From NCBI RefSeq assembly GCF_000027125.1, contig NC_017626.1: a stretch of DNA of 64,000 bases, one strand, 5' to 3'. Shown one piece after another: positions 4,768-16,368 of the stretch (its first letter is position 1; each line of letters starts with the position of its first letter). The notes beneath the pieces are model-generated. The model worked only from the letters and a program-made list of their open reading frames with translations, had not been told where the DNA came from and did not search any database. The stretch comes from Escherichia coli 042. Its GTDB lineage: Bacteria > Pseudomonadota > Gammaproteobacteria > Enterobacterales > Enterobacteriaceae. A program made the translations under genes and the position numbers.

Positions 4768-5051
4768 AACTTCCCGACGCAAAGTGATTAAAAGGGAGCC
4801 AATACAGGCAAGTCGTTGAGAATAAAGTGCAGGTTAAACTGGGTAAAGCGGCATCGTCTTATTTCCCTCAAGCGGCCTGTTTACGGTGGGTGATTGTAAC
4901 GGGCATAGGTTAAATAAAACTTAAAGAAAGCGTAGCTATACTCGCAATAATGTAAGAATGTGCTTAACCGTGGTTTCAGCTACAAAATTCGCTTTCTCGT
5001 TAGCTGCGCTTTTATTAAACTTTGCGCGATTATTATTGGCGAAGAAATTGC

Positions 5052-6284
5052 ATGCAAAATAAATTAGCTTCCGGTGCCAGGCTTGGACGTCAGGCGTTAC
5101 TTTTCCCTCTCTGTCTGGTGCTTTACGAATTTTCAACCTATATCGGCAACGATATGATTCAACCCGGTATGTTGGCCGTGGTGGAACAATATCAGGCGGG
5201 CATTGATTGGGTTCCTACTTCGATGACCGCGTATCTGGCGGGCGGGATGTTTTTACAATGGCTCCTGGGGCCGCTGTCGGATCGTATTGGTCGCCGTCCG
5301 GTGATGCTGGCGGGAGTGGTGTGGTTTATCGTCACCTGTCTGGCAATATTACTGGCGCAAAACATTGAACAATTCACCCTGTTGCGCTTCTTGCAGGGCA
5401 TAAGCCTCTGTTTCATTGGCGCTGTGGGATACGCCGCAATTCAGGAATCCTTCGAAGAGGCGGTTTGTATCAAGATCACCGCGCTGATGGCGAACGTGGC
5501 GCTGATTGCTCCGCTACTTGGTCCGCTGGTGGGCGCGGCGTGGATCCATGTGCTGCCCTGGGAAGGGATGTTCGTCTTGTTTGCCGCATTGGCAGCGATC
5601 TCCTTTTTCGGTCTGCAACGAGCCATGCCTGAAACCGCCACGCGTATAGGCGAGAAACTGTCGCTGAAAGAACTCGGTCGTGACTATAAGCTGGTGCTGA
5701 AGAACGGCCGCTTTGTGGCGGGGGCGCTGGCGCTGGGATTCGTTAGTCTGCCGTTGCTGGCGTGGATCGCCCAGTCGCCGATTATCATCATTACCGGTGA
5801 GCAGTTGAGCAGCTATGAATATGGCTTGCTGCAAGTGCCTATTTTCGGGGCGTTAATTGCGGGTAACTTGCTGTTAGCGCGTCTGACCTCGCGTCGCACC
5901 GTACGTTCGCTGATTATTATGGGCGGCTGGCCGATTATGATTGGTTTGTTGGTCGCTGCTGCGGCAACGGTTATCTCATCGCACGCGTATTTATGGATGA
6001 CCGTCGGGTTAAGTATTTATGCTTTCGGCATTGGTCTGGCGAATGCGGGACTGGTGCGATTAACTCTGTTTGCCAGCGATATGAGTAAAGGTACGGTTTC
6101 TGCGGCGATGGGGATGCTGCAAATGCTGATCTTTACCGTCGGTATTGAAATCAGCAAACATGCCTGGCTGAACGGGGGCAACGGACTGTTTAATCTCTTC
6201 AACCTTGTCAACGGAATTTTGTGGTTGTCGCTGATGGTTATCTTTTTAAAAGATAAACAGATGGGAAATTCGCACGAAGGGTAA
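5052..6284 (+). CDS. mdfA: MFS multidrug efflux transporter MdfA/Cmr
   Basis: 12-TM-like ORF; start MQNKLASG inside ORF 5022..6284. Confidence 0.92.
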
Positions 6285-14334: not shown

Positions 14335-14811
14335 ATGACATCGCTGGTCGTTCCTGGTCTGGATACGTTGCGTCAATGGCTCGATGACCTGGGGATGAGT
14401 TTTTTTGAATGTGATAACTGTCAGGCTCTGCATCTGCCCCATATGCAGAATTTCGACGGTGTCTTTGATGCCAAAATCGATCTGATCGATAACACGATCC
14501 TGTTTTCTGCCATGGCGGAAGTCCGACCTTCAGCCGTATTGCCGCTGGCGGCGGATTTATCAGCCATCAATGCCAGTTCGCTGACCGTGAAAGCATTTCT
14601 TGATATGCAGGATGATAATCTGCCAAAGCTGGTGGTTTGCCAGTCTTTATCCGTTATGCAGGGCGTAACCTATGAGCAGTTTGCATGGTTCGTGCGTCAG
14701 AGCGAAGAGCAGATTTCGATGGTCATTCTTGAAGCTAATGCCCATCAACTGCTGTTACCGACTGACGATGAAGGGCAAAACAACGTTACCGAAAACTATT
14801 TCCTCCACTGA
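14335..14811 (+). CDS. ybjN: YbjN family protein (putative sensory transduction regulator)
   Basis: Start MTSLVVPGLD inside ORF 14287..14811, giving 158 aa. Confidence 0.82.
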   Translation: MTSLVVPGLDTLRQWLDDLGMSFFECDNCQALHLPHMQNFDGVFDAKIDLIDNTILFSAMAEVRPSAVLPLAADLSAINASSLTVKAFLDMQDDNLPKLVVCQSLSVMQGVTYEQFAWFVRQSEEQISMVILEANAHQLLLPTDDEGQNNVTENYFLH

Positions 14812-15161
14812 TAACTCCTTTCGAGTACGCAGTCGCTGCCGCAGTGACTGCGTGCTGCAAAATTATCTGCTGTTTTTAACCTTTTCTTAAAGATTATTTC
14901 ACTTCTCTTGTGCCGATTTGGCTTTATCACATAGAGCAAATACGCATAAAAATTTGTTAAATACCGTTTTTTAATCCGAGCTATAGTCTCAAACCCTGGC
15001 TAAAGTTATTCTTGCGATGCTTTTATATAGCGAGCAGTGCTGGCCGGGAGAGAGTTCTCTTTTCTTACACCGCGCCGATAAAAAATATGCACGTTTATTG
15101 CATATCTTTCAGTGTGACAACTTTTGTTCGTTTGTTAACGAACTTTCAGAAGGAAAGAGAT

Positions 15162-16274
15162 ATGACCGCCTTAAATAAAAAATGGCTATCGGGTCTGGTT
15201 GCGGGTGCTCTGATGGTCGTCTCTGTCGGCACGCTCGCGGCTGAACAAAAAACACTCCACATTTATAACTGGTCTGATTATATCGCCCCGGACACGGTGG
15301 CCAATTTTGAAAAAGAAACCGGTATTAAAGTCGTCTACGATGTTTTCGACTCTAACGAAGTACTGGAAGGCAAATTAATGGCGGGTAGCACCGGCTTTGA
15401 CCTGGTGGTGCCGTCAGCAAGCTTTCTGGAGCGCCAGTTGACTGCGGGAGTTTTCCAGCCGCTGGATAAAAGCAAATTGCCGGAGTGGAAGAATCTCGAC
15501 CCGGAGCTGCTGAAGTTGGTCGCCAAACACGATCCCGACAATAAATTTGCTATGCCCTATATGTGGGCGACGACCGGGATTGGCTATAACGTCGATAAAG
15601 TCAAAGCGGTACTGGGCGAAAACGCGCCCGTCGATAGCTGGGACTTGATCCTCAAGCCTGAAAATCTGGAAAAACTGAAAAGCTGCGGTGTCTCTTTCCT
15701 CGATGCACCAGAAGAAGTTTTTGCTACCGTGCTGAATTATCTCGGTAAAGATCCCAACAGCACTAAAGCAGATGATTACACCGGACCGGCAACCGATCTG
15801 CTGTTAAAGCTGCGCCCGAACATTCGTTATTTCCATTCATCTCAATACATTAACGACCTGGCAAACGGCGATATCTGCGTCGCTATTGGCTGGGCGGGCG
15901 ATGTCTGGCAGGCGTCAAACCGCGCGAAGGAAGCGAAGAATGGCGTTAATGTCTCGTTCTCGATTCCGAAAGAAGGGGCGATGGCGTTCTTTGATGTCTT
16001 CGCCATGCCTGCGGATGCCAAAAATAAAGACGAAGCCTATCAGTTCCTGAATTACCTGCTGCGCCCGGATGTGGTGGCGCATATTTCCGACCATGTGTTC
16101 TATGCCAACGCGAACAAAGAAGCTACGCCGCTGGTAAGCGCGGAAGTGCGTGATAATTCAGGGATTTATCCTCCGGCGGACGTTCGTGCGAAGTTGTTCA
16201 CTCTGAAAGTGCAGGATCCAAAAATAGACCGTGTGCGCACCCGCGCGTGGACCAAAGTGAAGAGCGGAAAATAA
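15162..16274 (+). CDS. potF: putrescine ABC transporter periplasmic binding protein
   Basis: Start MTALNKKWLSG with signal peptide inside ORF 15012..16274. Confidence 0.92.
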   Translation: MTALNKKWLSGLVAGALMVVSVGTLAAEQKTLHIYNWSDYIAPDTVANFEKETGIKVVYDVFDSNEVLEGKLMAGSTGFDLVVPSASFLERQLTAGVFQPLDKSKLPEWKNLDPELLKLVAKHDPDNKFAMPYMWATTGIGYNVDKVKAVLGENAPVDSWDLILKPENLEKLKSCGVSFLDAPEEVFATVLNYLGKDPNSTKADDYTGPATDLLLKLRPNIRYFHSSQYINDLANGDICVAIGWAGDVWQASNRAKEAKNGVNVSFSIPKEGAMAFFDVFAMPADAKNKDEAYQFLNYLLRPDVVAHISDHVFYANANKEATPLVSAEVRDNSGIYPPADVRAKLFTLKVQDPKIDRVRTRAWTKVKSGK

Positions 16275-16368
16275 TCCGCAGTCGTAGATGCCGGACGGGC
16301 GCACCACACCCGCCGGCAATTCGCACCATTATGGTGCGCTTGCACACATTCAATGCCGGAGAGCAGCC

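Follow-up and report, generated by a model that had tools for sequence, protein, structure and literature searches.

What is the inverted repeat that lies in front of potF? A first-pass annotation of the 64,000-nucleotide stretch of Escherichia coli 042 DNA analysed here (the window) had noted a 7-bp inverted repeat about 60-75 bp upstream of potF. It had also noted that the segment TGCAC-N5-TTGCA within the repeat resembles a -24/-12 sigma-54 element, and it had suggested that the segment, lacking the GG dinucleotide, may instead be a regulator operator. We conclude that the palindrome is very probably the core of potFp, the promoter that drives the putrescine ABC-transporter operon potFGHI and depends on sigma-54 (RpoN). 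It is an element that was already known, a non-canonical sigma-54 promoter, and not a separate operator.

Results

The palindrome and its surroundings

The gene order in the window is nfsA-rimK-ybjN-potFGHI. potF (15162-16274, + strand) encodes the putrescine-binding periplasmic protein and is the first gene of potFGHI, according to the open reading frame list and to the way RefSeq annotates E. coli records that are identical or nearly so. Direct reading of the ybjN-potF spacer shows the inverted repeat ATATGCA-CGTTTAT-TGCATAT at 15085-15105, with perfect 7-bp arms and a 7-nt spacer and no strand of its own. The potF ATG is at 15162, which places the palindrome 57-77 nt upstream. When the repeat is extended in a repeat search, it has 11-nt arms that match at 91% (15081-15091 and 15099-15109). 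Thus, the repeat is where the first-pass annotation had put it, and the TGCAC-N5-TTGCA segment is present as described, with TG as the -25/-24 dinucleotide.

As a bare repeat the palindrome is unremarkable and is not beyond chance. A count over the 64-kb window gives 136 perfect 7-bp inverted repeats when spacers of 0-15 nt are allowed, compared with about 64 in mononucleotide shuffles; eight have a 7-nt spacer, compared with 4.3 in shuffles, and the 350-nt ybjN-potF spacer alone contains four perfect 7-bp repeats. The core ATGCA-N7-TGCAT occurs once in the 64 kb, where 0.17 would be expected, and it appears at least once in 17 of 100 shuffles. What marks the palindrome as real is its conservation and the published binding data, not its symmetry.

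The symmetry itself has a simple origin. The canonical element is TGGCAC-N5-TTGCA, and potF has AT rather than TG at -26/-25, so that ATGCA mirrors the -12 half, TGCAT. The palindrome exists because T in place of G at -25 puts the self-complementary TGCA, the core of the -12 TTGCA, into the -24 element. The inverted repeat is therefore a side effect of a non-canonical -24 element.

The 389 bases around the palindrome are found at 95% identity or more in 5,419 of 5,426 complete E. coli genomes, in the order rimK-ybjN-potF-potG. Both arms are unchanged in the sampled strains (K-12-like, O157, Br112, AR_0058, EC42405 and SCPM), where variation is confined to the A-run, the spacer and position -7. 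An upstream open reading frame starting at the palindrome ATG (15087) shares the potF frame in E. coli; it is not conserved, because the distance from motif to ATG is 74, 75 or 76 nt in other genera. A consensus scan of 14700-15300 found no sigma-70 promoter candidate on the + strand, manual inspection near the palindrome found no conserved -35/-10 hexamers, and Rfam gave no credible RNA family in 14700-15300.

Other repeats lie further upstream in the spacer. An inverted repeat with 21-nt arms (81% complementary) directly follows the ybjN stop codon at 14819-14861, with a T-rich stretch after it; this is probably the terminator of rimK-ybjN, although a simple terminator scan did not call it. 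At 14978-15012, two direct-repeat-like elements (GCTATAGTCTCA … GGCTAAAGTTATT) are followed by CTTGCGA, an arrangement common to E. coli, Salmonella and Yokenella. In E. coli Br_112_kylling, this part of the spacer is replaced or deleted and everything from TTGCGATGC onward is kept.

The palindrome coincides with a sigma-54 site occupied in vivo

The segment fits the sigma-54 register, ATGCAC-GTTTA-TTGCA, and it contains the GC at -13/-12 within TTGCW (TTGCA, 15098-15102). The 17-mer TATGCACGTTTATTGCA (15086-15102, + strand), with its -24 region ATGCACG at 15087-15093 and its -12 region TTGCA, is letter for letter the sigma-54 ChIP-seq site OS08, ‘potF’, of Bonocora et al. (2015; PMC4591121). 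The likeness to a -24/-12 element that the first-pass annotation had seen is thus borne out. The OS08 peak centre (892944) lies 5 bp from the motif centre (892939), on the + strand with potF downstream (PMC4591121), so the sigma-54 ChIP data that the annotation had named as a check agree as well. OS08 has a fold-above-threshold (FAT) score of 2, and its promoter is listed as ‘predicted’ in EcoCyc (PMC4591121). This low ChIP-seq occupancy (FAT 2) counts against potFp. An earlier ChIP-chip study had placed a sigma-54 region at 892604-893381. The original prediction and array papers are reportedly Reitzer & Schneider 2001 and Zimmer et al. 2000.

The predicted sigma-54 transcription start is at 15113 on the + strand, 49 nt before the ATG (PMC4591121 Table 1), and is taken as the motif centre plus 19 bp; we found no mapped potF start site, and 15113 is a prediction. 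Salmonella is also covered by this work, as the ChIP-qPCR primer list includes potF and all 14 Salmonella sites tested were enriched (PMC4591121).

The offset between window and genome coordinates was checked through a second site of the same table, OS07 (TTGGCGAAGAAATTGCA, window 5036-5052, + strand), which is also the second-best canonical sigma-54 motif of the window. The best one, ATGGCGCGAATTCTGCA (54692-54676, - strand; 16.9 bits), is not in the high-stringency tables of Bonocora et al.

Binding in vitro and expression data come from Shimada et al. (2021; PMC8743547). The strongest RpoN-holoenzyme gSELEX peak (100%) falls in the ybjN-potF spacer, at 892632 (window ~14788), about 300 bp upstream of the palindrome. 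The motif given to this peak in their Table S2 is not the palindrome: it is a second TGCA-type sigma-54-like motif, TTTGCATGGTTCGTGC / TTTGCATGGTTCGTGCG, with TG for GG, at 14680-14696 in the 3' part of ybjN (PMC8743547). Beneath the peak itself, our search for a canonical sigma-54 motif returned nothing above 5.2 bits. On nitrogen depletion, potG mRNA rose 6.0-fold and potI mRNA 3.2-fold, and the authors concluded that activation requires RpoN and NtrC together (PMC8743547). The first-pass annotation had noted that potFGHI is nitrogen-regulated, and these data confirm it.

Lack of GG is compatible with a sigma-54 site

A GG at -25/-24 is a hallmark of the sigma-54 consensus, although it is not absolute. 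It is absent here: potF and every aligned ortholog have TG, with G-24 present. We built a position-specific scoring matrix (PSSM) from 48 canonical sigma-54 ChIP sites, in which G-25 occurs in 48 of 48. The potF motif scores 2.5 bits and ranks 324th among about 128,000 window positions; therefore, sequence alone would not call it. The same motif with GG would score 19.5 bits (a gain of 17), near the best E. coli sites.

Sites of this kind are bound in vivo. Five of 135 high-stringency in vivo sigma-54 sites lack G-25, namely potF, ygfT, dhaM, yqeC and ybhA (PMC4591121), and promoter function of the yqeC site has been confirmed by mutagenesis (PMC4591121). These results remove the ground on which an operator had been preferred. 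Two further results speak against the operator reading: known binders of palindromes fit poorly here, the NtrC half-site spacing being wrong and the ArgR match being at background, and conservation across genera is asymmetric (Y-21 and G-20 on the left, T-15 and T-14 on the right), as sigma-54 predicts.

The motif is conserved across Enterobacteriaceae

We compared 80 potF loci from Enterobacterales, 59 of them from Enterobacteriaceae genera. ATGCAYG-N4-TTGCAT is present in 57 of the 59, at 58-220 nt before the ATG and with randomised flanks, and the -24/-12 spacing is identical in 57 of 59. Within the 80-locus set, the motif was found in none of the Yersinia, Serratia, Pectobacterium, Dickeya, Brenneria or Rahnella loci. 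The published conservation table is high for Citrobacter, Enterobacter, Klebsiella, Cedecea, Raoultella and Cronobacter (PMC4591121), low for Salmonella and Yokenella, and empty beyond, in agreement with the taxonomic pattern of our loci (PMC4591121).

In an unbiased MAFFT alignment of 20 genera, the motif block is the best conserved intergenic stretch. TTGCA does not vary in any of the 55 distinct Enterobacteriaceae sequences with the motif. The symmetric invariant positions number five (ATGCA/TGCAT), and the next two are asymmetric, YG on one side and AN on the other. Conserved bases outside the symmetric core (Y-21, G-20, A-19, T-17, T-15 and T-14) match the preferences of sigma-54, in the spacer as well. 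Asymmetry of this kind would be predicted from sigma-54 binding rather than from a dimeric regulator. Across Enterobacteriaceae, strong purifying selection acts on the motif, whose position profile resembles that of sigma-54 sites except at A-26, T-25 and T-10.

Some loci depart from this pattern. Yokenella (L013) keeps both arms with a spacer shorter by 2 nt (ATGCATTTATTGCAT) and has lost the leader hairpin described below; the published conservation table likewise counts its site as lost (PMC4591121). Salmonella arizonae and diarizonae have a degraded -12 element (AGGCA, with TT lost) and no NtrC site. In Pseudocitrobacter faecalis (L032), a canonical TGGCGAGGTTTTTGCA lies about 141 nt before the potF ATG and about 66 nt upstream of the ATGCA-type motif.

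The positions that depart from the consensus are themselves frozen. A-26, T-25 and T-10 do not vary among the 55 distinct sequences with the motif, although the pattern used to pick these sequences itself fixes the three positions; L045, a locus outside this set, has G at -26 and keeps T at -25. No locus showed a GG variant of the site in a separate scan whose scoring favours GG. Sigma-54 prefers T-26 and G-25, unlike the frozen A-26/T-25. The invariance of A-26, T-25 and T-10 is beyond what sigma-54 alone explains, and a second factor might share the sigma-54 site.

potFp resembles other sigma-54 promoters

The NtrC-activated promoters of the Ntr regulon (glnAp2, glnHp2, glnK, nac, astC, argT and patA) share with potFp the bipartite -24/-12 structure with fixed spacing, sigma-54 occupancy in vivo, a leader of 20-90 nt, a function in nitrogen scavenging and an NtrC-consensus palindrome in cis. 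Unlike them, potFp has TG for GG at -25/-24 and A for T at -26. Its ChIP occupancy is lower (FAT 2 compared with 6-24 for glnH, glnK, nac and glnA), and its only good NtrC site is about 1.2 kb downstream, between potF and potG, whereas the sites of the Ntr-regulon promoters are 100-150 bp upstream.

The closest relative that we found is the ygfT site OS32, TATGCCCGTTTATTGCA(T) (L084, 6979-6995, - strand), identified by sigma-54 ChIP in E. coli K-12 (PMC4591121). It is identical to the potF motif at 16 of 17 bases; among the shared features are TAT at -27 to -25, CGTTTA in the spacer and T at -10. Like the potF site, it is weakly occupied (FAT 3), intergenic and directed toward its gene, with a predicted start 36 nt from ygfT. 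It differs in having asymmetric outer flanks (…TGCATCGCG) and in belonging to a purine/urate catabolism cluster. Judging from their sequences, potF and ygfT may form a small ‘ATGCA’ subclass of sigma-54 sites; ATGCAYGNNNNTTGCAT is a search pattern for a larger class that would include both. The intragenic yqeC site IS34 (TGAGCACGAACCTTGCA) also lacks G-25 and yet is a genuine sigma-54 site (PMC4591121), shown to be a functional promoter by site-directed mutation, ChIP-qPCR and qRT-PCR (Bonocora et al., PMC4591121). It differs from potF in having A, not T, at -25, in its position inside a gene and in its long leader.

The best NtrC site of the operon lies between potF and potG

Upstream of potF we found no NtrC-like dyad; the best candidate has four mismatches. 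A near-perfect NtrC-consensus palindrome, CGCACCATTATGGTGCG, is present in the potF-potG spacer at 16322-16338 (no strand assigned), 31 nt before the potG GTG and about 1.2 kb downstream of potFp. A second NtrC-like match with one mismatch, TTCACTCTGAAAGTGCA, lies inside the potF coding sequence at 16197-16213, 125 bp upstream of that palindrome. The spacer palindrome coincides with an NtrC gSELEX peak at 894130 (95%), and NtrC shifts a ‘potG’ probe in gel assays (PMC8743547). NtrC ChIP data, to which the first-pass annotation had also pointed, did not bear it out at this locus: ChIP-seq of nitrogen-starved cells lists no NtrC peak between 847 kb and 1073 kb, and so none at potF.

The spacer site and the upstream motif occur together. 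Of 56 loci with the upstream motif, 43 have an exact GCACY-N5-RGTGC core no more than 220 nt beyond the potF stop codon; of 24 loci without the motif, none does (Fisher 2e-11, uncorrected for phylogeny). The site is conserved as (T/C)GCACC-N5-GGTGC(A/G). Its loop bases are free and its arms keep the NtrC consensus, which argues for protein recognition rather than an RNA hairpin.

Shimada et al. treat this region as a ‘potG promoter’ (PMC8743547). Such a promoter would have neither the space nor a sigma-54 motif: no canonical sigma-54 motif occurs between 15200 and 17600. Therefore, we infer from co-occurrence that 16322-16338 is a candidate enhancer of potFp, acting from about 1.2 kb downstream. 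A parallel is relA, where NtrC bound 649-838 bp upstream is likewise far from the sigma-54 promoter that is its proposed target. Compared with such distance-independent enhancers, the candidate at potF differs in lying downstream, within the operon.

The potF leader has a conserved stem-loop

The potF 5' leader contains a conserved stem-loop, GTTCG-TTTGTTAA-CGAAC, at 15126-15143, just before the Shine-Dalgarno sequence. Across 20 genera, compensatory changes occur at three of four predicted pairs of the stem (for example GCGCG/CGCGC in Leclercia and GCCCG/CGGGC in Klebsiella), and the loop TGTTAAC is nearly invariant; the stem-loop matches no Rfam family. The loop resembles an ArcA half-site (TGTTAA), and this ArcA-like element lies at 15133-15139. 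ArcA has been reported as a repressor of potFGHI.

Upstream of the promoter, a CT-rich tract, UCUCUUUUCUU (15056-15066), is complementary over 11 bp to the ribosome-binding region of potF, AAGGAAAGAGA (15150-15160). In predicted folds, the Shine-Dalgarno sequence is mostly paired in read-through RNA (probability unpaired 0.11-0.37), compared with 0.5 for RNA that starts at 15113. The duplex of tract and ribosome site beats shuffled sequences (z < -2) in 19 of 55 loci, mainly in Escherichia and Citrobacter, and is thus not general. The tract resembles the CT-rich ‘insulator’ described for sigma-54 promoters in a preprint (bioRxiv 10.1101/086108).

Discussion

Experiments by others have shown that the exact 17-mer is occupied by sigma-54 in vivo and that the operon is induced on nitrogen depletion. 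We propose that RNA polymerase-sigma-54 holoenzyme binds ATGCACG in the -24 region and TTGCA in the -12 region to form a closed complex. An ATP-dependent enhancer-binding protein, most likely phosphorylated NtrC under nitrogen limitation, would then remodel this complex, and transcription would start about 49 nt upstream of the potF ATG. In this proposal the weak -24 half would keep basal occupancy low, and NtrC would reach the promoter by looping from its site 1.2 kb downstream.

A further proposal has two parts. First, A-26, T-25 and T-10 might be held either by a second symmetric protein on ATGCA-N7-TGCAT or by a distinct, low-affinity mode of -24 recognition, of which ‘ATGCA’ would be the signature. 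Second, and separately, potFp might have a natural NtrC enhancer 1.2 kb downstream, between the first and second genes of the operon. That both parts hold together seems to us unlikely.

The best surviving alternative to a plain sigma-54 promoter is that a symmetric dimeric regulator has its operator at the palindrome, in addition to sigma-54 or in place of it; this operator would overlap the sigma-54 site, and the regulator might, for example, compete with the holoenzyme. A regulator sharing the site would explain the frozen non-consensus A-26/T-25 and T-10: these are exactly the positions that extend GCA...TGC to the symmetric ATGCA...TGCAT, and no ortholog has drifted to GG despite the 17 bits that this would add to the sigma-54 score. 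Yokenella retains both arms though its spacer has lost 2 nt, and Lrp, ArcA and ArgR have been reported on the potF promoter region. Against this, positions six and seven of the arms are conserved asymmetrically, as Y-G in the left arm and A-N in the reverse complement of the right arm, and the ygfT twin carries a directional 19-mer without the outer symmetry. The candidates that we tried do not fit. An NtrC site is a 17-bp dyad (TGCACC-N5-GGTGCA) whose half-sites need a 13-bp offset; the TGCA cores of the palindrome are 11 bp apart, and a scan allowing two mismatches misses 15085-15105. An ArgR operator consists of two 18-bp boxes (wnTGAATwwwwATTCAnw) 2-3 bp apart; the palindrome scores 11/16 as a single box and 20/32 as a pair, which is background, as about 29% of 360-nt stretches drawn at random from the window reach at least 20 for a pair. 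The half-sites of NsrR (AAnATGCATTT) and CytR (GTTGCATT) resemble the palindrome; among papers pairing NsrR with potF, we found no report of NsrR binding there. Finally, we found no published binding at the palindrome of any protein other than sigma-54. We regard such an operator as improbable.

Much less probable still is that the palindrome is the site of ArgR, Lrp or ArcA annotated at the potF promoter, with an incidental likeness to sigma-54. Some genuine ARG boxes do contain TATGCAC or TGCAT. The palindrome is at background, however, and the best ARG-box-like pair in the ybjN-potF spacer is elsewhere: TACGCATAAAAATTTGTT-aaa-TACCGTTTTTTAATCCGA (14941-14979) matches the consensus at 22/32, within about the top 8% of random stretches. 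This pair could correspond to the ArgR site listed for the potF promoter by EcoCyc and IPOD-HR. The ArcA-like TGTTAA (15133-15139) is outside the palindrome, and the sigma-54 ChIP peak is centred on the palindrome.

There is almost no likelihood at all that the repeat arose by chance, or that it acts only as a hairpin in read-through RNA and has no function at the DNA level. Perfect 7-bp repeats are common (136 in the window, four in this spacer) and the arms pair in the predicted fold of the read-through RNA, but the block is the most conserved intergenic part across about 20 genera, sigma-54 binds the site in vivo, and the arms never covary and are invariant in sequence, which points to protein recognition and not RNA pairing, so that this conservation and the ChIP data exclude both.

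The palindrome is thus best read as the known nitrogen-stress promoter of the putrescine importer, not as a new operator. It follows that a missing GG is unsafe ground for rejecting a sigma-54 site. If a second protein holds A-26, T-25 and T-10 in place, potFp would be a sigma-54 promoter with an embedded operator; if they reflect a low-affinity mode of -24 recognition, selection would keep ‘ATGCA’ for tight, enhancer-limited expression. A sub-optimal -24 element has stayed frozen throughout the family Enterobacteriaceae. The operon also contains its own best NtrC site, which is downstream of the promoter and has co-evolved with it. Both results bear on how weak sigma-54 promoters are tuned.
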